Positions 7,259 to 54,351 are shown, counted from the first letter of the stretch. The stretch: DNA of 64,000 bases from Bacteroidia bacterium (GCA_965249955.1 OZ252261.1:1823971-1887970); one strand, 5' to 3'. Program-made: numbers and translations. The notes: a model not told the origin generated them from the letters alone.

Positions 7259-7275
7259 ACAGCTATAGCTTAAAT

Positions 7276-17931: not shown

Positions 17932-17962
17932 GGGTGGCTTTGCAAAAAGCTACCCTTTTTTA
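17932..17962 (+). terminator. Rho-independent terminator after sprA.
   Basis: GGGTGGCTTT-gcaa-AAAGCTACCC: a 10-bp stem with one G-U pair, followed by TTTTTTATT. Confidence 0.5.
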
Positions 17963-18233
17963 TTGCCTTAGGCTAAAGGATTTTAAATCCTCACTTAACG
18001 TGAGTTTGGGGTAAGAAGATTACAGAAACGGCACATCAATTTTAATCACCCGTAGTATTTGCTTATCTGTGCACAAGCACTGGCATTATCTCCCTTGCGA
18101 ACTATCTTATGTTGACCGAAACAATAAGTGTATGCAAAGCGGGTAGAAGGATGAAAAAACAGCTAAAAAATATAGAATGATTTTTTTAGTTGAATAAAGG
18201 CCAAGCCATATCCATTCAATAAAAGCCTTAAAA

Positions 18234-19884: not shown

Positions 19885-20604
19885 CTAAATAATCTCAAAT
19901 TTTACTATTACCGTGTAGCTAATAGTAATTAAAGTGCCGCTGCTTTTTTCCTGCTTCATTTTGCCAATTAGTAAAGTCATAAAAACACTATCGGTTGTAA
20001 AATCATCAGCCTTTTGTGTAATAGATATAACCTTCCCCAGTTTGTCGCCATTAATCTCAACCATAGGCGTAGCATGGTCTTTTGCTTTTTGTACCGCTTT
20101 TAATGAAAGAAGATTTTTGTAGTGGTCGGTCTTGCTATTGTTAAAAGAAGTTAGCTTAATCCGTTCAGCACCTAAAGAGTCTAAGCCGCTCATAATGGGC
20201 GCTATGCGAGAAATTTTCTTAAGATTTAAGGTAAAGCGTTTAAAATCGTTCTTCTCAAAATACACCCCGTCATAGCTTTGATTTTCAAGACCTGATATAA
20301 AAGTAACAAGATGGTTATCAGCTATGCCGTATTGGGCAAGAAAAGCACGTATTTCTTTTTCCTGTTGCTCAATGGTTTTCTTTTTAAGCTCAACCTTCAA
20401 AAAATCAGTTGTTCCTTTTTCTGCTGCCGTCGCTATCTCTTCCTCATTATATCCTTTAGAAGTTGTAAGATAAAATTCAAAAGTAAACTCATCCGCTTCA
20501 ACCTCCATTTTTTCGGTAGCCACTACTTCAATAAAACGTTGTTGTGCAAAGGATACAAGGGGCATTGTCAAACCCAAAAAAAGAATCAGCAGTAGTTTTT
20601 TCAT
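19885..20604 (-). CDS. SIMPL (DUF541) family periplasmic protein, paralog 1.
   Basis: Signal peptide MKKLLLILFLGLTMPLVSFAQQ followed by RFIEVVATEKMEVEADEFTFEF, the SIMPL N-terminal pattern (I.V.G.G...PD.a.....V). 239 aa. Confidence 0.65.
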   Translation of the reverse strand: MKKLLLILFLGLTMPLVSFAQQRFIEVVATEKMEVEADEFTFEFYLTTSKGYNEEEIATAAEKGTTDFLKVELKKKTIEQQEKEIRAFLAQYGIADNHLVTFISGLENQSYDGVYFEKNDFKRFTLNLKKISRIAPIMSGLDSLGAERIKLTSFNNSKTDHYKNLLSLKAVQKAKDHATPMVEINGDKLGKVISITQKADDFTTDSVFMTLLIGKMKQEKSSGTLITISYTVIVKFEII

Positions 20605-20607
20605 AAT
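20524..20607 (-). repeat. 84-bp segment identical, apart from one mismatch, to 21211-21294. It encodes the shared signal peptide and first mature residues of the two SIMPL paralogs.
   Basis: Direct comparison of the two segments: tacttcaataaaacgttgttgtgcaaaggatacaaggggcatt[g/a]tcaaacccaaaaaaagaatcagcagtagttttttcataat. Confidence 0.85.
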
Positions 20608-20622
20608 ACTTGGTTTTACTCG

Positions 20623-21291
20623 TTATTGAATTGCAAAGCGTACTATAGCTGAGTACTCAACGGTTATCATATAGTCATTAGATTTTTTTTCTCTAAACAT
20701 TTTTGACAACACAGCTTTTTGAGCATTCGCTACCATCTCCATATAATCAGAGTTGCTATTTATCTTTTCTTGTATAGAAAGTACTTTGCCAATTTTTTCA
20801 CCATAAGTACTTAACAGGTTCATGGCTTTTTTCTTAGCATTTTCTAACGCTTCTTTTTGTGCTTTGTTTTTTAATTCCTCAAGTTGTTTGCTAGAAGAGG
20901 AACTAATTTCTACTGAACTTCCTTGTAGAAGATTCAAGAACGTCATTACATCAGGGATAATCTTGGGGTTATAAAGCATAATAAGATACCTTCTTGTTTT
21001 ACCTTTACTTCCCATCATATATGTCGAGGGCTCGTCTTCTCCTAAAAAAGTAACTAATAGAGGGTCTACTCCTTTATCAGAAAGAAATTTTTTTGTACTG
21101 TCTTCAAGTTCATCAAGCGTTTTGACATTTATCCCATCACTGCTGCTTTCAGTAAGGGTTAAACTTAGGGTTAAGTCATCAGGTACTACCTCTATGGAAG
21201 CCTCTCCCTGTACTTCAATAAAACGTTGTTGTGCAAAGGATACAAGGGGCATTATCAAACCCAAAAAAAGAATCAGCAGTAGTTTTTTCAT
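20623..21291 (-). CDS. SIMPL (DUF541) family periplasmic protein, paralog 2.
   Basis: Same signal peptide, then RFIEVQGEASIEVVPDDLTLSLTLTE (SIMPL motif). 222 aa. Identity to paralog 1 is low outside the N-terminus. Confidence 0.65.
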   Translation of the reverse strand: MKKLLLILFLGLIMPLVSFAQQRFIEVQGEASIEVVPDDLTLSLTLTESSSDGINVKTLDELEDSTKKFLSDKGVDPLLVTFLGEDEPSTYMMGSKGKTRRYLIMLYNPKIIPDVMTFLNLLQGSSVEISSSSSKQLEELKNKAQKEALENAKKKAMNLLSTYGEKIGKVLSIQEKINSNSDYMEMVANAQKAVLSKMFREKKSNDYMITVEYSAIVRFAIQ

Positions 21292-21294
21292 AAT
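21211..21294 (-). repeat. Second copy of the 84-bp SIMPL 5'-end repeat.
   Basis: See 20524-20607. Confidence 0.85.
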
Positions 21295-28887: not shown

Positions 28888-29955
28888 ATGAATACCTACA
28901 CAAAACAACAATTAGAAAATTTTTGTCATTCGGTTTTTATCAAAATGGGATGTAGCGAAGCCGATGCTACACTTGCCACAAATGTTTTGGTAAAGGCGGA
29001 TATACGCGGAATAGATTCGCACGGTGTAGCTCGCCTTTCTGGCTATGTTCGCCTTTGGGAAGCAGGACGAATTAATCCCAAACCCAATATAAGAATTGTA
29101 CACCAAACCCCATCCACCGCAACGGTAGATGGCGATGAAGGTTTAGGCTTGGTGGTTGCCCCAAAAGCTATGGAAATAGCTATGGAGAAAGCCCACAACG
29201 TAGGCAGCGGATGGGTAGCCATAAAAAACTCAAACCACTTTGGTATTGCAGCCTACCATGCTCTTATGGCTACTGAACAAAATATGGTGGGCATTAGCAT
29301 GACCAATGCCAGTCCGTTAGTAGCACCAACCAACAGCACCGAGCGTTTACTCGGCACCAACCCCATGTGTTTTGCTATGCCTGCGGGAAAATACACTCCT
29401 GTGGTGAGTGATTTAGCCACATCAGCAGCGGCAAACGGAAAACTGGAAATAGCCCAACGACTAAGCAAAAGCATCCCCGAAGGCTGGGTGCAAACCAAAG
29501 ACGGACACCCTAGTACAGACCCTGCCGAACTGAAAAAGGGCGGCGCGTTGCTACCCCTTGGCAGTATGGAAGAGGCGGGACACAAAGGTTATGCGCTGGC
29601 GGCTGTGGTAGATATTTTTTCGGCGGTATTGTCAGGTGCAAACTATGGCCCTTGGGTGCCTCCATTTGTTAGTTTTTTACCCCTAGCACCCGATATGCCG
29701 GGGCAAGGTATAGGCCACTTTGTAGGTGCCATGCGGGTAGATGGCTTTCGCCCGATGGACGAATACAATAAGAATATTGAAAATTGGATAGAACGCTTTA
29801 AATCATCACCTGCCATTGATGATAAAAAAGTTTTAATACCCGGCGAACCTGAAATTTTTGAGCAAGAGAACCGCCTGCAAAACGGCATACCCCTTACCGA
29901 TGCAGTAGCTAAAGACTTGGAAGAACTGGGTGTTAAATTGGGTGTTAAGTTTTAA
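28888..29955 (+). CDS. Ldh_2 family (malate / L-lactate / L-sulfolactate dehydrogenase-type) NAD(P)H oxidoreductase.
   Basis: Family-typical segments (DIRGIDSHGVARL, HFGIAAYHA, GGALLPLG....HKGYALA). 355 aa. Confidence 0.7.
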   Translation: MNTYTKQQLENFCHSVFIKMGCSEADATLATNVLVKADIRGIDSHGVARLSGYVRLWEAGRINPKPNIRIVHQTPSTATVDGDEGLGLVVAPKAMEIAMEKAHNVGSGWVAIKNSNHFGIAAYHALMATEQNMVGISMTNASPLVAPTNSTERLLGTNPMCFAMPAGKYTPVVSDLATSAAANGKLEIAQRLSKSIPEGWVQTKDGHPSTDPAELKKGGALLPLGSMEEAGHKGYALAAVVDIFSAVLSGANYGPWVPPFVSFLPLAPDMPGQGIGHFVGAMRVDGFRPMDEYNKNIENWIERFKSSPAIDDKKVLIPGEPEIFEQENRLQNGIPLTDAVAKDLEELGVKLGVKF

Positions 29956-29959
29956 TCGC

Positions 29960-30160
29960 CATCTCTTCCTGCCCTTTGACTTCGCTCAGGATGACTACTG
30001 CCAAGCTTGTTCGAGCAATCTCACCATGACTGCGCGCTAGTCACCCTGAATTTATTTCAGGGTCTCGTTGCCCAATAACCGTTAACACAGAGCGAGATGC
30101 CGACCTCCGTCGGCATGACGAACGTCGTTACTATCTTCCCCAGTAGGGTGAAATACTGAA
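29960..30160. repeat. Intergenic cluster of hairpins containing a copy of the GACTTCGCTCAGGATGAC repeat core (29978-29995).
   Basis: The 18-mer at 29978-29995 is the exact reverse complement of 33222-33239. Additional palindromes: GTCACCCTGAA/TTCAGGGTCTC (30040-30068) and ATGCCGAC-ctcc-GTCGGCAT (30096-30119). Confidence 0.6.
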
Positions 30161-30380
30161 TATATTTGGATAACACAGCAGGTTAAAACCTACCGCTATT
30201 AATACCCCATCGGAAGTGCCGTTAGGTATGAATAGCATTGGTTTTCAAACCGATGATACCCTTTAGTATTTTTAGTGTTACGGCATAAAAGGCATATACC
30301 ACAGGGGTTATAGCGTTTTTTTCTTGTTACGATTTACCAAAGGATTAAGAACAAGTGATAATCTGGAACACGACCCTTCA

Positions 30381-30770
30381 CTAAAGCTCTCCGTTATTTT
30401 GAAGCACCTTTAAAAACATAGTTAAAATTAACAAAACAAATGCAATTAATGGGAAAAGAATTGCGCCTAGATTGCTTTTCTTTTTTGAATCATTCCTTTT
30501 TAAAATTTTTTTATATCGACTTTTATAAAAAAGGAGAAAGTATGATTGAATAAAAAAATAAAGAAGTAAAAATAGCGATAAATATTTGAAATATTCCATA
30601 TTTAATACTCCTTTTGGAATAAGTAAAATGGTCAAAAAGAACAAAACAAAATAGTATGTTATGAAGATCAATAGGATAATCATCATTGCGCTAAATGAGG
30701 CAATATCAGCATTTCCTACCCGTTCTTGAAAGTAATAATACTTGCTATATAAATAATCTAAAAAATTCAC
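30381..30770 (-). CDS. Hypothetical small membrane protein in an AT-rich islet (129 aa, ~3 TM).
   Basis: ORF with hydrophobic segments. Local GC is markedly lower than flanking genes. No family recognised. Confidence 0.3.
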   Translation of the reverse strand: MNFLDYLYSKYYYFQERVGNADIASFSAMMIILLIFITYYFVLFFLTILLIPKGVLNMEYFKYLSLFLLLYFFIQSYFLLFYKSRYKKILKRNDSKKKSNLGAILFPLIAFVLLILTMFLKVLQNNGEL

Positions 30771-30785
30771 TCTACTTAATGTTTA

Positions 30786-30810
30786 TCACTAATTATCTTA
30801 ATTAGTGATT
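30786..30810. promoter_or_regulatory. Perfect 10-bp-arm palindrome ATCACTAATTA-tc-TAATTAGTGAT between the PPTase stop and the start of the small membrane ORF. Candidate operator.
   Basis: Read directly from the sequence. It sits 16 nt upstream of the 30770 start codon on the minus strand. Confidence 0.35.
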
Positions 30811-30812
30811 TA

Positions 30813-31442
30813 TCAATACACCCAACACAAGCGGTATTGTTCGTCTACAATTTCAGTATGTATGGTTAGGTTATATTCTTTCTCTTTTAGCAATACCGCC
30901 TCAAACTCGGTGGCGTTTTCAGCAATAGGAAAAAGTATTTGCATATTTTTTCTAAAATCCACCTGCCCATCGCCAAACCATTTAAAAATAGCTTCTTTGG
31001 CACTCCATATCAAATACATGGTGTGCAGGTCGTTTTCGCCTGCTAAGTGTTGCCACTCGTACTCGTTTATAAACTTGCGCGCTATTTTTTTTATCCGTTC
31101 GTTTATCGCTTCAATATCAACCCCCACACTGCCCGTTTTGCTCACCAATACCGCCGCAAAATCGGCAGAATGGCTCATGCTAAAATTATAGCCCAGTCCA
31201 TCAATAAAAGGTCGACCGTTGGGTTGTTTCAGCACTTTTAGGCGTTTTTCTTCCGTTTTGTTTTTCAAAACCTCTTGCAGCAACACCCTACTAGATAGCC
31301 ATTGCTGGTTGCGACTGGGAAACTTAAATTCTTCAAACGGAAACATCCAAAGCATCTCTTTCAGTTCCTCTACGCTTTCAGTAATTTTCCACACCGCCAA
31401 TTCTGTATCGGCATTAGGGTATTTTTGCAAGATTATTGGCAC
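30813..31442 (-). CDS. 4'-phosphopantetheinyl transferase (Sfp/EntD-type).
   Basis: 209 aa. LAVWKITESVEEL N-terminal pattern, GRPF, and (F/V)SMSHSADFAAVLVS...GVDIE match PPTase motifs 2/3 (GxD, SxSH). WxxKEAxxK appears as IWSAKEAIFK. Confidence 0.75.
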   Translation of the reverse strand: MPIILQKYPNADTELAVWKITESVEELKEMLWMFPFEEFKFPSRNQQWLSSRVLLQEVLKNKTEEKRLKVLKQPNGRPFIDGLGYNFSMSHSADFAAVLVSKTGSVGVDIEAINERIKKIARKFINEYEWQHLAGENDLHTMYLIWSAKEAIFKWFGDGQVDFRKNMQILFPIAENATEFEAVLLKEKEYNLTIHTEIVDEQYRLCWVY

Positions 31443-31490
31443 ACTTCAAAAATAGAATTGTTTTTTTTGAAAAACGCAGCCATTAACACC

Positions 31491-32399
31491 ATGCCCAAAC
31501 TACACGCCCATAAACTGTTTACTTATACCGGTCACAAAGCCGCCTTGTATGGCTTGGGCAAAGGCTTTGCGCCCAATACGTTTGTAACCGGCGGTGCCGA
31601 AGGTTGGGTGGTAGAGTGGGATTTTGAACATCCCGCCGATGGGCAATTGCTGGTAAAAGCCAATTCGCCTGTGTACTCGTTTTTAGTTTTGGGCGATGAA
31701 AAACGGTTGTTGTGCGGCACCAGTGCAGGCCACTTGCACGTGCTGGATATGCAACAACGCCAAGAAACCCGAAATATTGAAGCGCACCGCGCAGGTATTT
31801 TTGATTTGGCGGCACACGGAAATAAAATTTTAAGTGCAGGCGGCGAAGGCAGCCTAAAGGTGTGGGATAGGGAAACACTTACTCTGTTTGCCAATATACA
31901 GCACAGCAATAAAAAAGCGCGGGTAATAGCATTTCATCCCACATTGCCACAAATGGCTGTTGGGTATAGCGATGCGACTATTAGGGTGTTTGATAGTGAA
32001 AATTTTGAGCTAGTGCAGCAAATACAAGGGCACAACAACACGGTAATGGCTTTGGCCTATTCGCCCAACGGCGAGTTTTTACTCAGTGGGGGATTGGATG
32101 CTGTGCTTAAAATTTGGGAAGTACACAAAGGCTTTGCCCCTGTGCAAACCATTAATGCGCATTGGCTGCATATAAACGCCATACAATACAGCCCCGCGGG
32201 ACACTATTTTGCTACGGCAAGCATGGATAAAACCCTTAAAATATGGGATGCCGATACTTTTGAGCTGTTAAAGGTGCTGGATAAAGAAAAGTACGACGGG
32301 CACACATCATCAGTAAACAAAATTTTGTGGGTTGATGATAATAGGCTTATTTCGTGCAGTGATGACAAAACCGCCAAGCTATGGCAAATAGGCACATAG
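31491..32399 (+). CDS. WD40-repeat protein (~7 blades, 302 aa).
   Basis: Repeated GH...WD/WE units (GHKAALYGL...VVEWD; AHRAGIFDL...LKVWD; GHNNTVMAL...LKIWE; INAIQYSP...LKIWD; GHTSSVNKIL...AKLWQ). The start was chosen at MPKLHAHKLF, because the longer ORF-track start would overlap the PPTase gene. Confidence 0.7.
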   Translation: MPKLHAHKLFTYTGHKAALYGLGKGFAPNTFVTGGAEGWVVEWDFEHPADGQLLVKANSPVYSFLVLGDEKRLLCGTSAGHLHVLDMQQRQETRNIEAHRAGIFDLAAHGNKILSAGGEGSLKVWDRETLTLFANIQHSNKKARVIAFHPTLPQMAVGYSDATIRVFDSENFELVQQIQGHNNTVMALAYSPNGEFLLSGGLDAVLKIWEVHKGFAPVQTINAHWLHINAIQYSPAGHYFATASMDKTLKIWDADTFELLKVLDKEKYDGHTSSVNKILWVDDNRLISCSDDKTAKLWQIGT

Positions 32400-32448
32400 C
32401 TGCCGTGTTATCCAAGCCCAAACCATTTTAGAATAGAACACAAGAACA

Positions 32449-32985
32449 ATGATATTATCAGATAAAAAAATACTGGAGGAGATTGAAAAAGGTACTATTT
32501 TAATAGAACCATTTCGCAAAGATTGTTTGGGCAGCAATTCTTACGATGTGCATTTAGGCAAACATTTGGCCACCTACAAAAACCGTGTTTTAGATGCCAA
32601 AGAGCATAATAAAATAGATATTTTCGAAATCCCTATGGAGGGTTTTGTGTTGCAACCCGGCACTTTATATTTGGGTGTAACTGAGGAGTATACCGAAACC
32701 CACAAGCATATCCCTTTTTTAGAAGGCAAAAGCAGTACAGGCCGTTTGGGTATAGATATACACGCCACGGCGGGCAAGGGTGATGTTGGTTTTTGTAATA
32801 CGTGGACGCTGGAAATATCGGCATCGCAACCTGTGCGCATTTATCGTGGTATGCCTATTGGCCAATTGATATATTTTGATGTAAACGGTGAAATTGAAAC
32901 CAGCTACGACAATAAAAAATCGGCCAAGTATAACAAACGCACCATGAAACCTGTAGAAAGCATGATGTGGAAGAATAAGTTTTAG
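32449..32985 (+). CDS. dcd: dCTP deaminase.
   Basis: MILSDKKILEEIEKGTILIEPF N-terminus, SYDVHLG, and EGKSSTGRLG are characteristic Dcd/dUTPase-fold motifs. 178 aa. Confidence 0.85.
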   Translation: MILSDKKILEEIEKGTILIEPFRKDCLGSNSYDVHLGKHLATYKNRVLDAKEHNKIDIFEIPMEGFVLQPGTLYLGVTEEYTETHKHIPFLEGKSSTGRLGIDIHATAGKGDVGFCNTWTLEISASQPVRIYRGMPIGQLIYFDVNGEIETSYDNKKSAKYNKRTMKPVESMMWKNKF

Positions 32986-33105
32986 GGTTTCTTTCGTCAT
33001 TGCGGAGAAACCTCTTAGGTTAACACAACGTGAGTTCGCGTTAAAAATCATAAAATCAATACACTAACTTACACCACCCTCAGTCCCTCCTTACCTACAC
33101 ACAAT

Positions 33106-33129
33106 CCTTCGACTACGCTCAGGATGACA
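33106..33129. repeat. Left arm of a 23-bp near-perfect inverted repeat (CCTTCGACTACGCTCAGGATGAC). The partner lies at 33220-33243, 90 bp away.
   Basis: The reverse complement of the 33220-33243 arm differs at one base. The same core occurs at 29978-29995. Confidence 0.7.
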
Positions 33130-33219
33130 ACGCAAGGAGGGAAGCCTCGCCTCTACCCATTGGTTTTTATAATATTTTGCCAAAAATATAACCCTGCATT
33201 GTCCCCTTGTGCGGCAGCA

Positions 33220-33243
33220 GTCATCCTGAGCGAAGTCGAAGGA
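33220..33243. repeat. Right arm of the inverted repeat (GTCATCCTGAGCGAAGTCGAAGG).
   Basis: See 33106-33129. Confidence 0.7.
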
Positions 33244-33317
33244 TAAGTGCGCAAGCAAAGGGGGAAGTATCGCATGGCCTGTCTACTTCCATCAAAATCC
33301 ATTACTTTTGAGATTAA

Positions 33318-34838
33318 GTGCAAACACTACCCTTTATACAAAAACACAGGGGCGGCATAGTTTTACTATTGCTACTACTACCCCTTTGCTTTGTAGCCGT
33401 GCGCCAAAACCACGATTGGGGCGACGATTTTGCACAATACATTAATCAAGCAAAATGTATTGTAGAGGGTAAAACCGCCGCACAAACAGGCTACATATAC
33501 AATAGCAACTACCCCATGTTGGGGCCTGCCGCCTACCCCGCAGGATTTCCCCTATTGCTTAGTCCTGTGTATGCCCTTTTTGGCACTAGCATAGTGGCCT
33601 TTAATGTGTATATGTCGCTGTGGTTGGTGTTGGCAGGATTTATATGGTATATGGTTTTGCGCCGCTTTCATAACGAGCTAACGGCGGTGCTCATTAGCCT
33701 GCTTTGGTGTTGGCACCCTTGGATGCTCGATTTCAAAAGCGAAATAATGGCCGATATTCCGTTTACTGCTCTAACGGGTTTGCTGATATTAATGCACCAA
33801 CGCGGTTTTTTGCAGTACGACGAAGAGAACAGAAAAAAATCGTTGTTGCGAGCAGTCGCAATGGGCTTGGTAACTGGCTTATTGCTCGCGGTTAAAATGC
33901 AGGGCTTGGCAGTTATTGCCGCCATATTTGCCGTAAGGGTTATTAATAATATTATCGACCTTCAACCTCCGTTTGAGCCTAAAAACAAACTGTATACAAA
34001 CCCTGCAACGGTTCTTATTGTTGGTTTTCTTACCTGCTTTGTCATTATCAATTACTTTGTCGCAGGTATAACCTTTGACGATTTGTTTACCTATGGAGGC
34101 AACTTTGCAGGCGAATCGCTTTGGGTATCGGTACGAGAAAACCTTACTTATTATACTGCTTTAATTCAAGATTATTTTCAGCGAAGCAAACCTACTTGGC
34201 AGGTGTTTCCTCTACTTACACAAGCATTGGTTTTGGCCTTTTACGTTATAGGTTTGGTGCAACAACTGGCAAAAAATCGCCCCACTATACTGTGGGTATT
34301 TTTGGCCTATATGGCTTTGCTGTTGGCATACCCTTATCGCGGTTCAGGCTTCCGATTTTTACTTCCCGTAGCACCTATATTGCTTCATTTTGCCGTAGTG
34401 GGTTTCAAAAGCATTCAGTGGAATTTCACTCTAAATAAAAAAATATGGGCGGTGGCTGGTTTTGTGTTGGTGATGTTGCAATTTTTGCCCGAGCAATATC
34501 AATCGATAAAAAATTCAAAAAACAATTTTGCAGGCCCTCAAGAACCTGAAAGTATAGAGGCTTTTACCTATATTCAAAACAATACGCCCGCCAATGCAGT
34601 GTTTATGTTTAAAAAGCCGCGTGCGCTTGCCCTGTATGCCCAGCGCAGTGCTTTTGCCGTTAACCCTGCCGATAGTGCCTTTGTAAAAGATATTGAACGT
34701 TTTTCTCCTAATTACATATTGATACATAACGAGTTATCGCCTGAAAGCGAGAAACAGTATGTAGCCAACAATGCCCAATTGTGGCAACCCCAATGGCATA
34801 ATAATAAGTTTACATTGTATACCAAAAACACACGGTAG
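33318..34838 (+). CDS. Polytopic membrane protein (506 aa, GTG start), possibly a GT-C-fold glycosyltransferase-like protein.
   Basis: Around 10 predicted TM helices. An acidic/aromatic first-loop motif WGDDFAQYI follows TM1, reminiscent of the GT-C DD/DE..Y motif. C-terminal soluble domain. No firm family assignment. Confidence 0.4.
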   Translation: MQTLPFIQKHRGGIVLLLLLLPLCFVAVRQNHDWGDDFAQYINQAKCIVEGKTAAQTGYIYNSNYPMLGPAAYPAGFPLLLSPVYALFGTSIVAFNVYMSLWLVLAGFIWYMVLRRFHNELTAVLISLLWCWHPWMLDFKSEIMADIPFTALTGLLILMHQRGFLQYDEENRKKSLLRAVAMGLVTGLLLAVKMQGLAVIAAIFAVRVINNIIDLQPPFEPKNKLYTNPATVLIVGFLTCFVIINYFVAGITFDDLFTYGGNFAGESLWVSVRENLTYYTALIQDYFQRSKPTWQVFPLLTQALVLAFYVIGLVQQLAKNRPTILWVFLAYMALLLAYPYRGSGFRFLLPVAPILLHFAVVGFKSIQWNFTLNKKIWAVAGFVLVMLQFLPEQYQSIKNSKNNFAGPQEPESIEAFTYIQNNTPANAVFMFKKPRALALYAQRSAFAVNPADSAFVKDIERFSPNYILIHNELSPESEKQYVANNAQLWQPQWHNNKFTLYTKNTR

Positions 34839-46365: not shown

Positions 46366-46824
46366 CTATTTTGTTAAAATGTAGCTAGAAGAATTATTTC
46401 GAGTTCTACCGCCAGTATAAATGTTGAAGTGTGAATAGTATAGTCCCAAACCTGATGAAACTTGTGCTTCACCTTTCTCTAAAAGATATTCATTTAAGGC
46501 CTTTCCAAATGCAGATTTCAAATCGATGTGTGCTAAAAAATTACTAATCTCAATGTAATCTCGACTAGCAGAATCCCAGTGATTATTGCCATATTCACGA
46601 ATAGTATTAAAAACTCTAAGTATTTCAACACAAGAATTAAAACTAAGCAAGCTGGTATCTTTCATATTTAGAATATTATTTGTGACTTTAACAATATTAA
46701 TAAAGCTATCATTGCTTATTTTAACTTGTCTTTCGTCGTTTTGGGCATTTAGTTGCCCACTACTGAAAACACATACAATTAGTGCTAAATATAATCGGGT
46801 CGTTTTTTTAGTTATGAAAGTCAT
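46366..46824 (-). CDS. Hypothetical secreted protein (152 aa).
   Basis: Signal peptide ending SGQLNAQ. No family recognised. Confidence 0.35.
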   Translation of the reverse strand: MTFITKKTTRLYLALIVCVFSSGQLNAQNDERQVKISNDSFINIVKVTNNILNMKDTSLLSFNSCVEILRVFNTIREYGNNHWDSASRDYIEISNFLAHIDLKSAFGKALNEYLLEKGEAQVSSGLGLYYSHFNIYTGGRTRNNSSSYILTK

Positions 46825-46829
46825 AGGCT

Positions 46830-48314
46830 TTACTCATTACAAACGCCTGCTTCCACCAAATAGTGTCGGTCTTCGCGCTCAAAATAGTAGCGCACATTAG
46901 GTTTAATTACAGAATCAGGGTGTTGCAGCCGTTTTGTTGGGTTTACACCCTCCCACAAGGTTTCATCACATATTACCATGCGCGGGTTTTGCCATGCGTT
47001 GTATACACTGCTTATCCACAAGTAATCGTGCTTATGAAACGCACCCAACAACCAATACGGCGGGGCAACAGTATAATTGTAGGGCAATACTTTTGCTACA
47101 GCTTCAATTTCTTTTACATACGGTTTTTCGGTAGCAGGCTTTGGTTTTGAAAAAATACCAACTGCATTTTGACTGAAAGAATAGTTAACCGCTGTTTGCA
47201 ATAAAACTACTTGTGCTATCACCAAAATTATTGCGACAGCTATACTAAGCACATTATTTTTTTGGAGCGAAGAAAACCAAAACCTGCCTTGTATAATGGT
47301 ATAAGCTGCAACCGCCAAAAATAACGTAAACGATAGCGAAAAACGAGGAACCCAAGTGAGCGAAAATCCGTTTTGTGGCAAATATACCAAGCCCGATACT
47401 AGGTTTACAGCCAATACAGGTAGAGACAGCAAAGCCCACCACAGCAAAAGTTTAGGTTGTATGCGTACAAACATTAGCCAAACCACTAAGGGCAATTGCA
47501 TCAGCGCAAAACTGTTTAGTATGCTGGTAATGTAGTCTTTTTTCACGCTGTTGTCCATTTCAGCCCATCGGGTAAAAGCCTTATCAAGCCGTGTTTCGGC
47601 AAAGTGGTTTTTATACTTTAGGTAGAAAATACCTAACGCAAAAATGGCTAGGTATACCACGCCCCACATAAATGATTTTTTTAGCCATTGCTTTTGGGTG
47701 ATACGCCCTGAAATCCACTCCCATGTAAAATATAAAATATGCAGGCAAGCCGCCAATACCGCCCCATCTTCTTTAACAGAAATAATAAAAAGTGCACTTA
47801 TAATACTAACCCATTTTTGTTGCCTGTGTAGCGATAATGCAAAAACAAACCCTAAAGGGATGTAAAGTATTTCTATATGAAAGCCAAACCAAGTATCATC
47901 GTACAACCAAAACGAGTATGGGCCAAGAAATAGGGCTAATAGGAAAACGGTGATGCGGGCGTTGCTTACCTTGGCTTTTTGTAAGGTTTTTAAGCCGTAT
48001 ATAAATGCCCAAACATAAAGCCCCAGTTGTGCAGTAAACAACCCGTACGCTCCCCACCACAGCACCAAAGGCCCCAATAATAGGTTAAAAAAATAGTTAT
48101 GGTATTGGGCATGGTTGCCATAGTTATTCTCAAACATAGCAGGCCGACCTTGCAACCAACTACGGCTTGTTTGTATGTGCGAGAATAAATCACTTTGGTA
48201 AGTGTGTTTATTAAACAAAGCAACTTTTGCAGCAAAAAACCAAAACAGTATAGCCAAACCAAAGCCAACTATGGCTACAGCCCAATACTGTTGTTGTTTG
48301 CTATTTATAGCCAT
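46830..48314 (-). CDS. Polytopic membrane protein, DUF2079-like (putative GT-C-fold glycosyltransferase), tandem paralog 1.
   Basis: 494 aa with ~12 TM. Shares YQSDL(F/Y).H...SR.WLQGRP.M.EN.YG.H...HNYFF.LL.GPL and (V/I)SVKEDGAV with the adjacent paralog. Confidence 0.5.
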   Translation of the reverse strand: MAINSKQQQYWAVAIVGFGLAILFWFFAAKVALFNKHTYQSDLFSHIQTSRSWLQGRPAMFENNYGNHAQYHNYFFNLLLGPLVLWWGAYGLFTAQLGLYVWAFIYGLKTLQKAKVSNARITVFLLALFLGPYSFWLYDDTWFGFHIEILYIPLGFVFALSLHRQQKWVSIISALFIISVKEDGAVLAACLHILYFTWEWISGRITQKQWLKKSFMWGVVYLAIFALGIFYLKYKNHFAETRLDKAFTRWAEMDNSVKKDYITSILNSFALMQLPLVVWLMFVRIQPKLLLWWALLSLPVLAVNLVSGLVYLPQNGFSLTWVPRFSLSFTLFLAVAAYTIIQGRFWFSSLQKNNVLSIAVAIILVIAQVVLLQTAVNYSFSQNAVGIFSKPKPATEKPYVKEIEAVAKVLPYNYTVAPPYWLLGAFHKHDYLWISSVYNAWQNPRMVICDETLWEGVNPTKRLQHPDSVIKPNVRYYFEREDRHYLVEAGVCNE

Positions 48315-49813
48315 TATTTAGGTGTTATGCCTGCTTCAATAAGGTAGTGGCGATCTTCGGGAACAAAATAATACGTTAGTTTTTCGGCTACTAACGAGTC
48401 GGGGTTTTGTATCGCCTTATGCGGATCACTCTGGCCTATATTACTCTCGTTAAAAACAATCATGCGCGGCCATATATGCGCCACAGGTATCAGGTTTGTC
48501 CAAATTAAATCTTGCTTATGAAAATAGCCAAACATAGGGTAGGGAGGGGCTATTGGGTACATGGGGGGCAGTACTTTACCCAGTTTTCGCATATCCTCCC
48601 AGTGGGGATAGTTTTGGTGGTGTGTATTTATACTAAATATTCTGCGTGAATATTTTGGGTACGAGTATTCTATTTCACTATTCAGCAAACTAATTTGCCA
48701 TTTAAAAAGCACAATACTAAAACCAATAGCAGCCACCCACAACACAAAGCTAGGGCGAAACCAAGCCCTTGAAAACATAAGCAACGAAAACGAACCCATA
48801 GCTAAAAAAAGGCTAAAGGTTAATGCAAAGCGAGGCACCCATGTAAGCGAAAAAAACTGCGCAGGGAAATACACAAAACCCGAAATTAGGTTAACAATAA
48901 TAATGGGGATAGAAAATGTCAACCACCACAACCAAGCCTTGTAGTTTAGCTGACGGATAAATAACATAAAGGCGGCTAAAGGCAATACCATCAAGCCAAA
49001 CGAAGAAAAAATACCTGTAAAGTAAGTGCGTATATTTTCTTTGCTTTGTAAACCTATTCGTTCAAACGATTCGGTAATTCTATCGTAGCCAAAATCGTTT
49101 TGAAGTTTTAGATAATACACCCCTGCTACAAATACGGCTACCCAAACACTACCCCACAAAAGCGATTGCAGCAACCAACGTTTTGTGGTGGTTTTTTTTG
49201 CAGCAAATTGCAAGGCAATAAACAATAGGTGTATACAAGCTACCATTACAGCCCCATCTTCTTTTACTGATACCATTAGTATGGCCGATAGTGCACTAAC
49301 CCAATGTTGTTTTTTGTATAGCGAAATAGCCAAAATAAAACCAAGGGGTATATAAAGCATTTCGGTATGGAAGCCATAGTGCGGATTATCGAACAGCCAA
49401 AAAGAAAAGGGCGCACAAAAGAAAGCAATATAAAAAACGGCAGTATACAAGCGATGGTTTAAGCTGGCCTCTTTTTTATAAATAGTAGGAAAGGTGTATA
49501 AAAGCGCAATAATGTACAAGGCAAATTGGGTAACAAAAAGCCCTATTACTCCCCATTGTTTTGTTAAAGGCCCCATTAACAAATCAAAAAAGTAATTGTG
49601 TATTTTGCCGTGAAAACCATAGCAGTTTTCGTGCATCAACGGTCGCCCTTGCAGCCACCCTCGGCTTATTTCAAGGTGCGTATACAGGTCTGATTGGTAA
49701 TCGGGGCGGTTAAAAATTGCAATCTTGGCTGCATAGTACCAAATTAATATTCCTAGCGAGGCAAAGAATATAGCTAGGCCTAAAAAATCACGTTTTTTAA
49801 AAAGCTCTATCAC
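48314..49813 (-). CDS. Polytopic membrane protein, DUF2079-like, tandem paralog 2.
   Basis: 499 aa. Colinear similarity with 46830-48314 along the whole length. Its stop codon overlaps the start of paralog 1. Confidence 0.5.
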   Translation of the reverse strand: MIELFKKRDFLGLAIFFASLGILIWYYAAKIAIFNRPDYQSDLYTHLEISRGWLQGRPLMHENCYGFHGKIHNYFFDLLMGPLTKQWGVIGLFVTQFALYIIALLYTFPTIYKKEASLNHRLYTAVFYIAFFCAPFSFWLFDNPHYGFHTEMLYIPLGFILAISLYKKQHWVSALSAILMVSVKEDGAVMVACIHLLFIALQFAAKKTTTKRWLLQSLLWGSVWVAVFVAGVYYLKLQNDFGYDRITESFERIGLQSKENIRTYFTGIFSSFGLMVLPLAAFMLFIRQLNYKAWLWWLTFSIPIIIVNLISGFVYFPAQFFSLTWVPRFALTFSLFLAMGSFSLLMFSRAWFRPSFVLWVAAIGFSIVLFKWQISLLNSEIEYSYPKYSRRIFSINTHHQNYPHWEDMRKLGKVLPPMYPIAPPYPMFGYFHKQDLIWTNLIPVAHIWPRMIVFNESNIGQSDPHKAIQNPDSLVAEKLTYYFVPEDRHYLIEAGITPK

Positions 49814-51204
49814 TTATTGTTTTCTACCGTTTGTTTACTGATTAAAACATATTGCCACACCAAAAATGCGGCGGCCATTGGCAATAGCCATATCATACGC
49901 GCCATATACCTGTCTACCACGCCCGAAAATGATGCACAAACCACACCGTTTACTACGCAGCCTATAAACACTACTATTGCAAACGCAAAAGGGCTGTTAT
50001 AAGCAGCGTTGCGATAAAATATTATCCCCAAAACCAACAATAGCAATAGCGAAGCGTATACCACCCAACGCTGTATGGTAGACTGTGTTTCAAAATGCAA
50101 CGTTTCTGTATACTGTACGGCATTTTGGTATTGGGACATTTCGCGCCCAAAAAAATCTTTAATACCACTATACACCGGCGAGTTTTCGGCCATTGGGGTT
50201 AGGTAACCCAAATCAAAAAGCCCTAGTTGCCTCCAACTGTCGGAGGCACATTTTTCAATCAAAGCATTGCGAGATGGGCCATAAGCCAAAATACCTTTTA
50301 CGGTTTTGCCGTAGGCAGCATCTTTTTCAATCCAACATTCGCCCCAGCCCTTTGCTACACAAGCACTATCGTATAGTGGGCTGTTGTTAAACTCCCACAA
50401 AAAATCTACCGCCAACGGCGATAAGTTATCTTTTGCCGCACATAAATCGGCAGGGGCATCAGGGCATTTATGGTCGAGGTACACTTTAGCTGCCCCTGTT
50501 TCTATACAGCGCGCCACCAAAAACACATTCCCTGTACGCGACGGCTGAAAACCGACACCCAGCCAGTAATTGAACAGGCAAATAACCAACCACGAGGCTA
50601 TGCTCCAAAATACCACTCGTTTGTGGGTTTTGTTTCTATCAGCAAAAAATGGTTTTTTCTTAAAGATAAGTCGCAGTACAAACAGGCCAACGGCCAGTAA
50701 ACTAAAGATAAGCAGGTGCGAGCTGTGCACAGATATTGAAAACAGCAACACCACTACCAACCAAAAACGGTGTTTTGATGGAATACTTTTGCCTGCAACC
50801 AAAGTAGCAAAAGCCAACAGTGCAATAGGCGAAAATACATCGGCCATTATTTGGCTATGGTTGTGCGATAAGCCTGTTAAAAAGCCCAAACCTGCCAATA
50901 AAAGACAAGCAGGAATAAAGGAGTTTTTTAGTTTTAAAATATACCGCACTGCCATGCGTGCAGCATACAACAGTATTAACGATTGTGCTAAGAGAACCAG
51001 CCAAAGGCTAAACCACAAACTGCTGTGGCGCACAAACCAACTGTAAAAATAGGGACGGTCGACAGGTACGTAGTGAATAAAACCGGCGACTATGTATGTG
51101 CCCGAATCAGAATAGAGCATGGGATAGCCGTTGAGCAGGGCAGGAAAATTAATTGCTGCCAGCGCGACTATAAAAGCCAATATTTTTAGCACCCATTGCC
51201 TCAC
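49810..51204 (-). CDS. Polytopic membrane protein with a Cys-rich extracytoplasmic domain (464 aa). Start uncertain.
   Basis: N-terminal block of ~7 TM. A ~150-aa loop carries 7 Cys (..ARCIETG..DHKCPDAPADLCAAKD..DSACVAKGWGECWIEKD..EKCASD..). C-terminal TMs. The 4-nt overlap with the upstream paralog suggests an operon. Confidence 0.45.
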   Translation of the reverse strand: MRQWVLKILAFIVALAAINFPALLNGYPMLYSDSGTYIVAGFIHYVPVDRPYFYSWFVRHSSLWFSLWLVLLAQSLILLYAARMAVRYILKLKNSFIPACLLLAGLGFLTGLSHNHSQIMADVFSPIALLAFATLVAGKSIPSKHRFWLVVVLLFSISVHSSHLLIFSLLAVGLFVLRLIFKKKPFFADRNKTHKRVVFWSIASWLVICLFNYWLGVGFQPSRTGNVFLVARCIETGAAKVYLDHKCPDAPADLCAAKDNLSPLAVDFLWEFNNSPLYDSACVAKGWGECWIEKDAAYGKTVKGILAYGPSRNALIEKCASDSWRQLGLFDLGYLTPMAENSPVYSGIKDFFGREMSQYQNAVQYTETLHFETQSTIQRWVVYASLLLLLVLGIIFYRNAAYNSPFAFAIVVFIGCVVNGVVCASFSGVVDRYMARMIWLLPMAAAFLVWQYVLISKQTVENNK

Positions 51205-52995
51205 GCTGCCAAATATACGGCTATAAGTGCATTTGGGGTATTTTTAAGTATTTTTGGCGCAATAACTTCTGTTTTGGCGCAACACCTAAAAAAATACATT
51301 AAGTGGTATATAGCTGCATTATTGTTTGCAGCTACCTATGCCTTGTATACCGACGGCATTGTGATGCAGGCTAACCGCATGATTATAGGTAGGTTGGATA
51401 TGCAAAGCGATGTGCCTGTTTTTTACAACAACATTTATTTGTTTGAAAAGAAAGTTCAGGCAGGAGAAAACCCGCTGAATAATGATATGGAAATGTACCC
51501 TGCGGGGTTTAACATGGCCATGAATTCGCACAACTTTGCTATGGGTATTTTTTGCCTTCCCTTTAAAAATAATATGCAGGGGCTAAACATGGGTTTGTGG
51601 CTCTCGTTTATACTTTCAGGCTTAGGTGCTGCTTTTTTGTGCTACCGTTTTGTACCTAATTATTGGGCGGCGGTATTGGTAGGGTTTATTTTCGCCTTTT
51701 CGCCTTGGAAAATGCTAAAACTGCAAGATCATCATTGGTTTGCACTTACGGCCACTATACCGTTTTATATATATCATTTTATCGATATTTTCGATTTTAA
51801 AAGGCGACGGTATTTACCCTCTATCAGCAGTTACAAAAAAATAATTTATTGTTTTTTGTTGGGCGCGGTTACTGCCTTATCAGAGTATTACCTTACTTTT
51901 TTCCTTATTTATTTTTCGTTGTTTTATGTACTGATAAAACAATACGTACAGCCTTGGCGTATCAACTTTAAAAAACCAAAAACATGGGGCATTATAGCTT
52001 TTGCGGTAGTGGGTATAAGTATTTTGGTGAGTGTGCTTGATGGTGCTGGCTGGGACAATAAAGGAGCTTTTTTTTGGGGAGGAGATTTGGCTGCATATTT
52101 TCTTCCCGTATACCAAACTTGGGTAAAGGATTTTATAGGTGTTTTTGGTTTTGAAATCCCTGCCTATCAAGAAAACTTTTTCTTTCTTGGGTTTTCATTT
52201 ATTGCCTTTACAGTGTTGGTTTTCATCAAAGCTAAAAAAAGTAAAATTACACCACCTGAAGATATAAAAGCTTTTGCATGGCTGGCTTTGTTGTTTGTGT
52301 TGTTCAGTTTGCCTGTACTAAAAGTATTGGGTCATTTTTTGTTTTATCTGCCCACAGCCATTTTTCATTACATACCGTTTTTTAATAATGTGCGCGTTAT
52401 TACCCGCATATTTATATTGTTTAGTCTACTGTTTCCTATTGTGGTAATGTGGTTTTATCACAACAGCGTGCAATGGAAGTTTAAGAATATTTTACCCGTA
52501 ATAGTATTGGTAGTGTTGTGGTTTGAGTTTACTCCGCCTAAATACGATGTGATTGACAGCCAAACAACCCCGACAGAAATAGCCCAACTGCACAGAATAA
52601 AAGGCAATGTGGTATTGCCCATACCCGCAGGTTTGCGCGATGGTTTCACCCAAATAGGTCTTAATAATTCGGATATGCTGTTTTATCAAACCCTGTTTGA
52701 TAAAAAAATGATAGGAGGCTATACTGCTAGGCTAACAGATGATGTACGACAGTTGTACCTATCAGACAGTGTGATGAAAAACATACTTATCCTTTCAGAA
52801 AATCCCAATGCAGTTGTTGCATTACCAACGCCCCAACAAACTGAACAATTTTTCACCACTTTTGAGGTTGATATGGTGTGTATAGCCCCCACCTATAAAG
52901 GCACAAAGGCTGAGGAGTATGCGCGCTACATAGCGGCACAAAGGGGATTAAACATTATACAGGGCAAAAAGTATCTTATTTTAACAAAAAATTAA
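51196..52995 (+). CDS. Large polytopic membrane protein (599 aa by the ORF track). Start uncertain, because the annotated start overlaps the divergent upstream gene.
   Basis: At least 12 hydrophobic helices in the first 450 aa, then a ~150-aa soluble C-terminal domain. GT-C-like overall topology. Confidence 0.45.
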   Translation: MPHAAKYTAISAFGVFLSIFGAITSVLAQHLKKYIKWYIAALLFAATYALYTDGIVMQANRMIIGRLDMQSDVPVFYNNIYLFEKKVQAGENPLNNDMEMYPAGFNMAMNSHNFAMGIFCLPFKNNMQGLNMGLWLSFILSGLGAAFLCYRFVPNYWAAVLVGFIFAFSPWKMLKLQDHHWFALTATIPFYIYHFIDIFDFKRRRYLPSISSYKKIIYCFLLGAVTALSEYYLTFFLIYFSLFYVLIKQYVQPWRINFKKPKTWGIIAFAVVGISILVSVLDGAGWDNKGAFFWGGDLAAYFLPVYQTWVKDFIGVFGFEIPAYQENFFFLGFSFIAFTVLVFIKAKKSKITPPEDIKAFAWLALLFVLFSLPVLKVLGHFLFYLPTAIFHYIPFFNNVRVITRIFILFSLLFPIVVMWFYHNSVQWKFKNILPVIVLVVLWFEFTPPKYDVIDSQTTPTEIAQLHRIKGNVVLPIPAGLRDGFTQIGLNNSDMLFYQTLFDKKMIGGYTARLTDDVRQLYLSDSVMKNILILSENPNAVVALPTPQQTEQFFTTFEVDMVCIAPTYKGTKAEEYARYIAAQRGLNIIQGKKYLILTKN

Positions 52996-54351
52996 GTGCG
53001 TAATGTAACATCATATAGTTTTTGGGCTTTTTGTGCCTTAGTAGTGCTTTACGTAGTACTGTTTTTTAACGGGCGTGAGTGGATGAAGCACGATGCTCTT
53101 CGCCACGATATGACAGCGTATTACGCCTACTTGCCTGCTGTTTTTGTTGATCAAGAGATTGAACTAAACAGCGAGGAAACCCGGAAAAACACAATGTATT
53201 GGTGGAGTGTAGAAGCTCCCGCACGCGAAGGCCGCATCATTAGGATGAGTATGGGTGTTAGCTACCTGCATTTGCCCTTTTTTCTGCTGGCACATATTAC
53301 TGCTAAACCGTTGGGACACGAAGCCAATGGGTTTAATGTCCATTATTACTTTTTTATACTGATAGGCAGTGTGTTTTATGCCCTTGCAGGGTTTTGGTTG
53401 CTACGCAAACTGCTATTACTTTTTTTTGGCGATGGAGTTACCGCTATTACTCTAATACTTATAGCTACTGCTACCAACTTGGTATATTATGCCCTTAGCG
53501 AAGGAGCTATGAGCCACGCATACAACTTTTTTTTAGTGATAGCTTTGCTATACCTCACTGTAAAATGGCATACAAAGCCTAAGTGGGGCAATACTATTTT
53601 ATTGGGCTTGGTAATGGGCATTATTACCCTTGCACGCCCTCTAAACTTATTGCTGGCTTTAGTGCCTGTGTTATACAATGTATATTCAAAAGAAACGCTT
53701 ATGCAAAAGCTACAGCTAATCCAAAAAAACTGGGGTAAGGTGTTAATAGCGGTTGTGTTTGCTTTTTTAGCTTTGTTGCCCCAATTGCTCTACTGGCATT
53801 ATATGAGCGGTGAGTGGACGTATTATACCTACGGCGATGAAGGCTTTTTCTTTACCCACCCGCATATTATTGATGGGTTGTTTAGCTACCGCAAAGGTTG
53901 GTTTGTATACACCCCCATTATGGCAGTAGCTGCGGTAGGTTTAGTGATGATTTGGAAACAAGCCAAACAATGGGCATTGCCTTTGTTTATAGTACTACCC
54001 GTATTTGTTTGGTGTGTTTACAGTTGGTGGACATGGTGGTATGGCGGTAGTTTTGGCTCGCGACCGATGATAGATATTTACGGGCTAATGGCCATTCCTT
54101 TGGCGGCAATACTTACTTGGGCACTAAAAAGAAAATGGACGGGTGCAACGTTTTTGCTATTGGGTGCATTCTTTATATACCTTAACATATACCAAACCTA
54201 CCAGTACAAAAAGGCAATGATACACTGGGACAGTATGACCAAAGAGGCCTACTGGGCGGTTTTTTTAAAGAAAAATTACCCTGATAACTACGACAATTTG
54301 ATAAAAGCCCCCGATTACGAAAAAGCAAAAAAAGGTGAAGATGAATACTAA
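52996..54351 (+). CDS. Polytopic membrane protein with a GT-C-like first-loop motif (451 aa).
   Basis: The start is adjacent to the previous stop. Acidic/aromatic loop motif ALRHDMTAYYAYLP follows TM1, as in the DE..Y motif of GT-C enzymes such as PMT/ArnT. Around 11 TM helices. Confidence 0.45.
   Translation: MRNVTSYSFWAFCALVVLYVVLFFNGREWMKHDALRHDMTAYYAYLPAVFVDQEIELNSEETRKNTMYWWSVEAPAREGRIIRMSMGVSYLHLPFFLLAHITAKPLGHEANGFNVHYYFFILIGSVFYALAGFWLLRKLLLLFFGDGVTAITLILIATATNLVYYALSEGAMSHAYNFFLVIALLYLTVKWHTKPKWGNTILLGLVMGIITLARPLNLLLALVPVLYNVYSKETLMQKLQLIQKNWGKVLIAVVFAFLALLPQLLYWHYMSGEWTYYTYGDEGFFFTHPHIIDGLFSYRKGWFVYTPIMAVAAVGLVMIWKQAKQWALPLFIVLPVFVWCVYSWWTWWYGGSFGSRPMIDIYGLMAIPLAAILTWALKRKWTGATFLLLGAFFIYLNIYQTYQYKKAMIHWDSMTKEAYWAVFLKKNYPDNYDNLIKAPDYEKAKKGEDEY

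Follow-up and report, generated by a model that had tools for sequence, protein, structure and literature searches.

The window analysed here is a stretch of 64,000 nucleotides from a Bacteroidia bacterium (GCA_965249955.1, OZ252261.1:1823971-1887970), and the elements in question are short hairpin repeats with a GTCA-type tag at the foot and the core GAGCGNAG(Y)CGA at the apex. In total, the 64-kb window contains three copies of this repeat and two to three units of other types, all of which are located at intergenic sites. The first site is flanked by a gene of the Ldh_2 family (malate/lactate-dehydrogenase family), which ends at 29955, and by a convergent open reading frame (ORF) of 129 aa, and the second by dcd, which ends at 32985, and a membrane-protein gene that starts at 33318.

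Two of the three copies face each other head to head at the second site, the left arm at 33104-33128, where the minus strand reads GTCATCCTGAGCGTAGTCGAAGGAT, and the right arm at 33220-33244 on the plus strand (GTCATCCTGAGCGAAGTCGAAGGAT). The original prediction, which was made from the sequence of the window, had described this arrangement as a 23-bp inverted repeat with one mismatch. The inverted repeat is real, but its length and spacing needed correction: the arms are 25 nt long, 96% complementary and separated by 91 nt, and the sole mismatch between them falls on the free N position of the apical module. The 91-nt spacer between the two GTCA heads (33129-33219) contains a small A/T hairpin, ATATTTT-GCC-AAAATAT. 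Upon folding, the segment 33095-33255 forms one long hairpin of -64.8 kcal/mol on the plus strand and -72.5 kcal/mol on the minus strand (z about -7), in which the 25-bp helix between the arms is thermodynamically dominant. The 18-mer GTCATCCTGAGCGAAGTC, which had been singled out as too frequent to recur by chance, has three matches with at most one mismatch, at 29978-29995 and 33111-33128 on the minus strand and at 33220-33237 on the plus strand, and the form shared by the three copies is GTCATCCTGAGCG(A/T)AGTC. None of 100 dinucleotide-preserving shuffles contained any match to the 18-mer, in agreement with the claim that chance does not account for it.

The third copy, at 29971-29995 on the minus strand (GTCATCCTGAGCGAAGTCAAAGGGC), begins 16 nt past the stop codon of the Ldh_2 gene and is decayed, with one apical G changed to A and with an outer stem that contains a T.G pair and an A/C mismatch. 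It abuts a degenerate GTCA-tagged unit at 29996-30030, the minus strand of which reads GTCATGGTGAGATTGCTCGAACAAGCTTGGCAGTA. Two further palindromes that had been pointed out within 29960-30160 also exist, namely GTCACCCTGAATTTATTTCAGGGTCTC at 30040-30066 on the plus strand and GTCATGCCGACGGAGGTCGGCATCTC at 30094-30119 on the minus strand, both of which start with the GTCA tag. We place these two among the repetitive extragenic palindromes (REPs), as different REPs of the same superfamily: the former consists of GTCA, an 8-bp stem of ACCCTGAA and TTCAGGGT with a 5-nt loop, and a TCTC tail (DNA fold -7.2 kcal/mol), and the latter has an 8-bp stem and a 4-nt loop (DNA fold -9.8 kcal/mol). The segment 29971-30119 is in all a cluster of four units of three sequence types.

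The repeated unit is about 25 nt long and is not the 140-bp block at 33104-33244. A scan of viral contigs with GTCAYCCTGAGCGNAGTCGAAGG recovered 38 stretches, and because these share no flanking sequence with one another or with the window, the conserved object is confined to about 25 nt. The unit can be written as (C/T)GTC-A-N3-4-[GAGCGNAG(Y)CGA]-N3-4-T, with AGTC as a further form of the tag and a stem of 4-5 bp. The stem opens with an A-T pair and is free in sequence provided that the pairing is kept, and the apex GAGCGNAG(Y)CGA is near-invariant. At least 149 distinct instances were found in the viral contigs with the looser pattern CCTGAGCGNAG(N)CGAAGG. The pair directly outside the core covaries (C with G, T with A), and is of the Watson-Crick type in 46 of 51 instances with the shorter core and in 81 of 98 with the longer core. 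To control for circularity, we used 133 further copies from the fetched loci that match none of the search patterns. The four stem pairs adjacent to the core are Watson-Crick pairs in 68-74% of these unselected copies, as compared to 14-32% in a shifted control, and the stems are diverse (CACT/AGTG, TGCT/AGCA, GGCT/AGCC, TTCT/AGAA, GTCT/AGAC, CGGT/ACCG). A formal covariation count on a gap-free alignment of 79 sequences (A1) gave 85.2% paired cells, as compared to 26-43% when the partner column was slid, and 125 cells had changed on both sides as compared to 45 +/- 8 in shuffles, with none of 500 shuffles as high.

The apex behaves differently from the stem, in that its central triplet, where the flanks are paired, is GNA in 518 cases and any other triplet in at most 8, which is partly an effect of the search pattern. 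One-base variants at the apical G/A positions have random flanks, and a sister type, GAG-CTTGT-CGA, retains both the paired flanks and the tag. GTCA stands immediately before the stem in 63 of the 133 unselected copies, mostly as TGTCA or CGTCA. In the window, the tag is TGTC at 33129-33132 on the minus strand and AGTC, with three of the four tag bases, at the other two copies. The stems of the window units open as GTC-AT-CCT...AGG-AT, and across the family, A-T is the largest class at the first pair, whereas the second pair is T-A or C-G.

Species-representative genomes contain the exact 25-mer GTCATCCTGAGCGNAGTCGAAGGAT in at least 125 instances on at least 120 stretches from more than 20 phyla. 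Among the matches listed are Saccharimonadia and Peregrinibacteria of the candidate phyla radiation (CPR), Scalindua (Planctomycetota), many Bacteroidota, Verrucomicrobiota, Acidobacteriota, Clostridia, Chloroflexota, Spirochaetota, Fibrobacter, Gemmatimonadota, Nitrospirota, Myxococcota, Ignavibacteria, Cloacimonadota and Gammaproteobacteria. Based on a crude ORF call around 164 copies, 130 copies are intergenic, and some lie inside ORFs on either strand. Convergent gaps around the copies outnumber divergent gaps (28 vs 14), and the gene end closest to a copy is more often a 3' end than a 5' end (68 vs 44). Relative to co-directional neighbouring genes, the orientation of the copies is unbiased, with 39 in sense and 31 in antisense. 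Neighbouring copies within 200 nt of each other in the fetched loci are arranged tail to tail (25), head to head (18) or in tandem (14). Head-to-head pairs with spacers of 80-102 nt are abundant in metagenomes, with at least 125 other pairs, and no second copy of the window-type 91-nt spacer was seen among the pairs listed in this metagenome scan.

Some copies were found in unusual settings. In four viral contigs (L044, L057, L089, L121), a GTCA-tagged hairpin harbours a further, whole REP in its apical loop, as exemplified by GTCATTCCCGCG[CCTGCCCTGAGCGCAGTCGAAGGG]AGCGGGAAT. One phage lineage (L007, L019, L038) has an ORF in which a copy is read in frame within the part for the signal peptide, with the sequence MKKLKSFLAIFMIALSF-VILSGVEG-QAQG.... 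At the locus L172 (2701-4726), a group II intron with a reverse-transcriptase/maturase-like ORF (3173-4546) is located between a tail-to-tail REP pair, and its 5' GTGCG starts 7 nt past a REP tail, an arrangement consistent with hairpin-targeting bacterial introns landing on REPs.

We compared the sites between strains by means of contigs from marine and other metagenomes that encode an identical Dcd protein (L151-L160) or an identical VTT-domain protein (L401-L408). At the two sites described above and at a third one downstream of sprA, hairpins have been gained, lost or replaced between strains, always within strain-variable segments. The hairpins are also used as junctions on a within-species time scale. 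At the dcd site, the REP pair is contained in a strain-variable segment of 257 bp at 33026-33282, which begins with ACAACGTGAGTT and has its left breakpoint right after CTTAGGTTAAC. The same 257-bp segment is present in L156 and L157. Its place is taken by 987 bp with two small reverse ORFs in L151, L154, L155 and L159, and by 662 bp in L152 and L153. In L158, 2420 bp are found that include a pair-bearing module of about 86% identity in unchanged orientation, and the 91-nt spacer is conserved to the same extent and likewise not inverted.

The gap between dcd and the membrane-protein gene (32986-33317 in the window, 10538-11601 in L151, 9851-10669 in L152 and 2288-4801 in L158) is a modular array of orphan-ORF cassettes. 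The ORFs in these cassettes encode 107-257 aa and have no Pfam match. Each cassette boundary carries a repeat of about 30 nt that ends in AACCT(T)CTTAGGTTAAC and contains a small hairpin, AACCT/AGGTT, and the right end of the array is GTCAACCGC|CTACTTCC. Four modules are stacked in L158, where the promoter and 5' end of the downstream gene are duplicated. We considered and rejected the integron attC site as a model for the cassette junctions; their GGTTAAC, judged by eye, is an exact match to neither RYYYAAC nor GTTRRRY, and no integrase accompanies them.

At the Ldh_2 site, the window shares the copy at 29971-29995 with L157, and a cassette with a 152-aa ORF is found instead in L151, L152 and L154. 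The degenerate unit at 29996-30030 is missing from L157. Both of the 8-bp-stem hairpins have been swapped between the window and L157: the position 30040-30066 holds ACCCTGAA-TTTAT-TTCAGGGT in the window and ATGCCGAC-GAAG-GTCGGCAT in L157 (as a whole, GTCATGCCGACGAAGGTCGGCATCTC), and the position 30094-30119 holds ATGCCGAC-GGAG-GTCGGCAT in the window and ATGCTGAA-CTTGT-TTCAGCAT in L157 (as a whole, GTCATGCTGAACTTGTTTCAGCATCTC). The GTCA...TCTC frame is the same in the window and L157 for both swapped hairpins. L156 has neither the REP cluster nor the 129-aa ORF; their place (5533-7302) is taken by a 589-aa gene that has an HATPase_c_3 domain and, at the C terminus, a weak match to Shedu SduA_C, and that we regard, from these domain matches, as a candidate defence gene in a REP-marked hot spot.

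The site downstream of sprA had been grouped with the other two in the original prediction, and rightly so, as the repeat is present at this very position in other strains. The copy follows directly past the sprA terminator in the aligned strains, with GTCATCCTGAG(T/C)GGAGTCGAAGGA in six full-length loci; L408 has a decayed version, and in L402 the contig ends within the copy. The DNA upstream is unrelated in L407, where it joins precisely at the GTCAT. The window itself has a specific segment of about 150 nt at this place (17976-18126), which holds AACGTGAGTT at 17997-18006. The motif AACGTGAGTT had been said to be common to the two repeat sites and the hairpins after sprA, which held only in part: it occurs exactly only at 17997 and 33027, and no match with up to one mismatch was found in 29960-30160. 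The two exact copies in the window compare to an expected 0.12, which is suggestive but not strong evidence of a non-random recurrence. In the extended form AACGTGAGTT(T/C)G(G/C)G (17997-18006 and 33027-33036 in the window; 3209-3222 in L158), it opens the strain-variable insert beside the REP pair and is also located inside the window-only segment that replaces the REP downstream of sprA, where a junction-like AACTATCTTATGTTGACCGAAACAAT follows at 18100. It is possible that a second small segment, either mobile or recombining, ends in this sequence.

We also searched for a gene that could mobilise the repeats. The six-frame translation of the window contains no HUH-Y1 motif, and Pfam identified no transposase, integrase or invertase among essentially all of its approximately 55 ORFs. 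Of the Pfam families matched by 150 ORFs that flank copies on the 120 genome stretches, the 25 most frequent include no transposase or recombinase, and the top ones are housekeeping families (GNAT 5, AhpC 3, response regulator 3). No common enzyme was found between distant inverted copies located 1.6-2.9 kb apart, where we found unrelated housekeeping genes and one group II intron. In the supplements of a survey of HUH endonucleases (PMC6006769), we found no GTCAT-type hairpins beside the Bacteroidetes subclass 2.6 genes.

REPs have been divided into GTAG-tagged and CGTC-tagged superfamilies, the latter with families CGTC-1 to CGTC-4 (Di Nocera, De Gregorio and Rocco, 2013; BMC Genomics 14:522; PMC3733652). 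According to that study (PMC3733652), CGTC REPs have a CGTC tag, for which TGTC or CCTC often stands, and their stems are 8-9 bp long and begin almost without exception with A-T pairs, with loops of 4-5 nt and short CCA-like tails. They are found in many copies per genome, by preference in intergenic DNA downstream of genes, mainly as head-to-head dimers with spacers of 20-100 nt and occasionally inside genes, in five phyla including Bacteroidetes/Chlorobi, with no dedicated transposase, and include dRS3 of Neisseria (CGTC-1) and RPE-4 and RPE-6 of Rickettsia (PMC3733652).

We consider it likely that the window hairpins are REP-type repeats of the CGTC-tagged REP superfamily, in which the GAGCGNAG(Y)CGA units constitute a further family. 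These units are filed there because they have in common with it the tag, the A-T start of the stem, the location, the absence of a transposase and, to some extent, the tendency to form dimers. More precisely, the GAGCGNAG(Y)CGA units have an unpaired tag, the A-T stem start and an intergenic, gene-downstream location, and no associated transposase. Head-to-head dimers are frequent, as in the window with its spacer of 91 nt, though outnumbered by tail-to-tail pairs among neighbours within 200 nt (18 vs 25), copies inside genes are occasional, and the repeats occur in Bacteroidetes/Chlorobi and other phyla. The published geometry is matched directly by the two other hairpins, at 30040-30066 and 30094-30119, which have 8-bp stems and loops of 5 and 4 nt. 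A dispersed, small REP-like family had been among the readings offered in the original prediction, and it is borne out by the tagged palindrome, the covarying stem, and the unrelated, mostly intergenic contexts in which copies are often arranged head to head or tail to tail. Neither the apical module GAGCGNAG(Y)CGA nor the peptides encodable by the repeat occur in the text and supplements of PMC3733652, and literature searches with the repeat sequence in both orientations and its variants returned unrelated primer matches only.

The near-perfect 25-bp inverted repeat around a short non-coding segment, which is present in some strains and absent from others, could also suggest a miniature inverted-repeat transposable element (MITE), as had been proposed. 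The unit 33104-33244 would then have 25-bp terminal inverted repeats derived from an insertion sequence and would have been moved by its transposase with the formation of target-site duplications. However, there is no target-site duplication, as the bases that flank the pair differ (CACACA | AAGTGC), and since single arms are found at hundreds of sites in unrelated surroundings, it is the arm, a mobile 25-nt hairpin, that is repeated and not the block. Moreover, the spacers of the at least 125 other head-to-head pairs are unrelated to that of the window, the strain-variable segment is the 257 bp with ends at 33026-33282 rather than the arm-bounded block, and no transposase was found among the window ORFs or among the top families beside copies elsewhere. 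The MITE reading is largely refuted and we consider it very improbable. The same pair of arms lies upstream of the membrane-protein gene at 33318-34838, has an arm length and spacer size within the known range of invertons, and encloses on the minus strand of the spacer a TATTTTTG box that resembles the Bacteroidetes -7 promoter element. It could on these grounds be taken for an inverton, in which a site-specific recombinase flips a promoter in the 91-bp spacer and so switches the gene. But the spacer is oriented alike in each of the four assemblies in which it is present (the window, L156, L157 and L158), there is no recombinase among the window ORFs, the arms are copies of a repeat that occurs singly across bacteria, and strains that lack the pair keep the conserved upstream sequence of the gene of about 35 nt with TACTTTTG. 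An inverton is therefore extremely improbable.

Two other explanations retain the hairpin but not its mobility. One of them is a cis-acting RNA element, such as a terminator, a stabiliser of mRNA 3' ends or a protein-binding hairpin, that is selected site by site and is neither selfish nor mobile. The preservation of REP positions between divergent alleles, in which the body of the palindrome changes and the GTCA...TCTC frame stays, would fit such an element, as would the proximity of copies to 3' rather than 5' gene ends, the lack of canonical terminators for dcd and Ldh_2 and the very stable predicted fold of the pair. Against it stand the unbiased orientation relative to flanking genes, the absence of a U-tract after the hairpins, the location of some copies inside ORFs on either strand, and the gain and loss of copies between near-identical strains. 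A structured RNA in the sense of a defined family, another of the earlier suggestions, also finds no support in Rfam, where covariance models gave no match over the window at the gathering score and none on the hairpins (29900-33400) at E-values up to 10. We consider a cis-acting RNA element to be unlikely. The other explanation is that the 12-nt apex is a double-stranded DNA site for a conserved chromosomal protein, with palindromic flanks that serve only for cruciform extrusion or dimer binding. There is a precedent in the REPs of E. coli, for which binding of gyrase, IHF or Pol I has been described, and both the extreme conservation of the 12-mer across phyla next to a free stem and the absence of apical structure in thermodynamic models speak for it. 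Yet the stem covaries, which is not required of duplex DNA, the apex is not palindromic, so that a symmetric dimer site is unlikely, and the explanation comes without a candidate protein. It is in our view quite unlikely.

For the REP-type repeats as we read them, we propose the following mechanism. Selection acts both on the pairing of the stem and on the exact sequence of the apex. From published DNA and RNA motif chemistry, the apex T-GA-GC-GNA-G(Y)C-GA-A may form a compact mini-hairpin on the GTCA strand only, in which tandem sheared G.A pairs (in the YGAR context) would be followed by G-C and C-G pairs that close a GNA triloop, with the Y bulged out. A 5'-YGAR-3' context favours tandem sheared G.A pairs, and hairpins of the GCGNAGC type with a GNA triloop are unusually stable. 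If the mini-hairpin forms on the GTCA strand, the element would act in single-stranded DNA or RNA. Between strains, copies come and go or give way to others, in every case in intergenic DNA and at the margins of strain-variable segments. The copies may spread via a trans-acting factor that is not encoded beside them or by templated conversion between copies, which would match the published CGTC REPs, for which no transposase is known (PMC3733652). Based on its position, a pair or cluster could in addition provide a stable 3' hairpin in transcripts that leave dcd or Ldh_2 and thereby block 3' exonucleases or read-through. No canonical terminator was identified for either gene, and no terminator-like site at the repeats. 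Intrinsic-terminator-like hairpins were observed elsewhere in the window, at 7274-7319 (a perfect 21-nt inverted repeat past a LytTR response-regulator gene) and at 17932-17965 past sprA (GGGGTGGCTTTGCAAAAAGCTACCCC followed by a T-run), so canonical terminators exist in this genome alongside the REPs.

Extended to all copies, the GAGCGNAG(Y)CGA mini-hairpin might be the recognition module of a widespread trans-acting machinery, or of a host-replication-dependent copying of hairpins, that moves or converts the 25-nt elements in more than 20 phyla and in phages, and the elements might mark intergenic sites at which strain-specific cassettes are exchanged, including defence-like genes. This extension is speculative and we hold it to be doubtful, but if true it would give the long-orphan CGTC REP superfamily a mechanism.

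Several observations weigh against the assignment to the CGTC superfamily or against the mechanism. The GAGCGNAG(Y)CGA units differ from published CGTC REPs in having a stem of 4-5 bp and a non-canonical apex instead of a stem of 8-9 bp and a loop of 4-5 nt. Covariation supports five Watson-Crick pairs and the predicted loop is 12 nt long; to arrive at nine stacked positions, one has to accept both the tandem G.A pairs and the GNA triloop. The apical mini-hairpin rests on outside knowledge, since nearest-neighbour folding of a single unit gives the outer 5-bp stem and a 12-nt loop alone (-1.7 kcal/mol as DNA, -4.5 kcal/mol as RNA), and this fold is no better than that of shuffled sequences. 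The apex, being invariant, cannot covary, and a loop that a protein binds in a sequence-specific manner would explain it equally well. The stem mismatches give no clear sign of strand specificity, with 24 of the G.T type and 18 of the A.C type over all stem pairs of the unselected copies. A strand-specific wobble asymmetry was considered at the outermost stem pair (T.G in 10 copies, C.A in 0) and rejected, since it concerns this one position and is not robust in the unselected copies. The tails are ATC(T/C)C, GAC or variable, with AAG, TGT and similar tails in the window copies, and not CCA, and the tag at two of the window copies is AGTC, where C/TGTC would be expected. Finally, the role as a 3' hairpin is based on position, and the lack of an orientation bias relative to genes (39 vs 31) does not favour it.

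In itself, the feature is of an ordinary kind, a REP, and the CGTC/GTCA kind is already known; what is unusual is the identity of the 25-mer across phyla. The GTAG-tagged REPs have a partner enzyme, the REP-associated tyrosine transposase (RAYT). The CGTC/GTCA superfamily, defined in 2013, is without a known partner enzyme. The window provides a clean member of a sub-family with a 25-mer that is identical from the CPR to Bacteroidota, Firmicutes, Acidobacteria and phage contigs. Its free stem and fixed apex can be dissected separately, and the near-identical marine Bacteroidota strains supply natural filled and empty alleles at three loci. For annotation, the repeat explains a frequent class of spurious small ORFs as well as strain-variable intergenic hot spots.

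Other features of the window were also recorded. Its genes include those for SprA and proteins with a Por_Secre_tail domain, by which the organism can be assigned to Bacteroidota. Seven consecutive ORFs of 152-599 aa at 46366-55516 have no Pfam match, and short paralogous DNA repeats (D4, D6, D16, D20) are common to this block, the membrane-protein gene at 33318-34838 and a GT87 gene at 55592-56770; they probably represent a family of large, glycosyltransferase-like membrane paralogues. An 84-nt direct repeat of 99% identity (20524-20607 and 21211-21294) is located where two neighbouring minus-strand SIMPL (DUF541) paralogues begin, which suggests a recent gene conversion or duplication of their N-terminal ends.

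Compared to the CGTC families described so far, the 25-mer has a far wider range, with more than 20 phyla and phage contigs as compared to the five phyla reported. There is a parallel with dRS3, a GTCAT-tagged hairpin repeat of about 20 nt with the stem and loop ATTCCC-N8-GGGAAT, and with the Neisseria intergenic mosaic elements (NIMEs). These are also GTCAT-tagged hairpins that flank segments of 50-150 bp as inverted repeats and are tied to recombination and variable regions, but their stem and loop sequences are different, dRS3 is restricted to one genus, where it is very abundant, and it is a known integration target of filamentous prophages, whereas no such phage or integrase was seen here. 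The REPIN/RAYT (TnpA-REP) system of GTAG-tagged REPs was rejected as an identification, given the GTCA tag, the lack of an HUH-Y1 motif in the window and the lack of a Y1 transposase among the top families of the 150 flanking ORFs. With that system, the repeats share a conserved tetranucleotide at the foot of the hairpin, inverted pairs, intergenic locations and a within-species turnover of copies; they differ from it in the tag, GTCA/CGTC rather than GT[AG]G, and in that REPINs are lineage-specific, whereas the 25-mer is identical across phyla. The Rickettsia elements RPE-4 and RPE-6 and the small dispersed repeats of cyanobacteria, the latter reportedly described by Elhai et al. in 2008, have other sequences and narrow host ranges, and the RPEs measure 100-150 bp overall, but like the repeats in the window and their relatives they are very small hairpins that occur in frame in genes and nested in one another.

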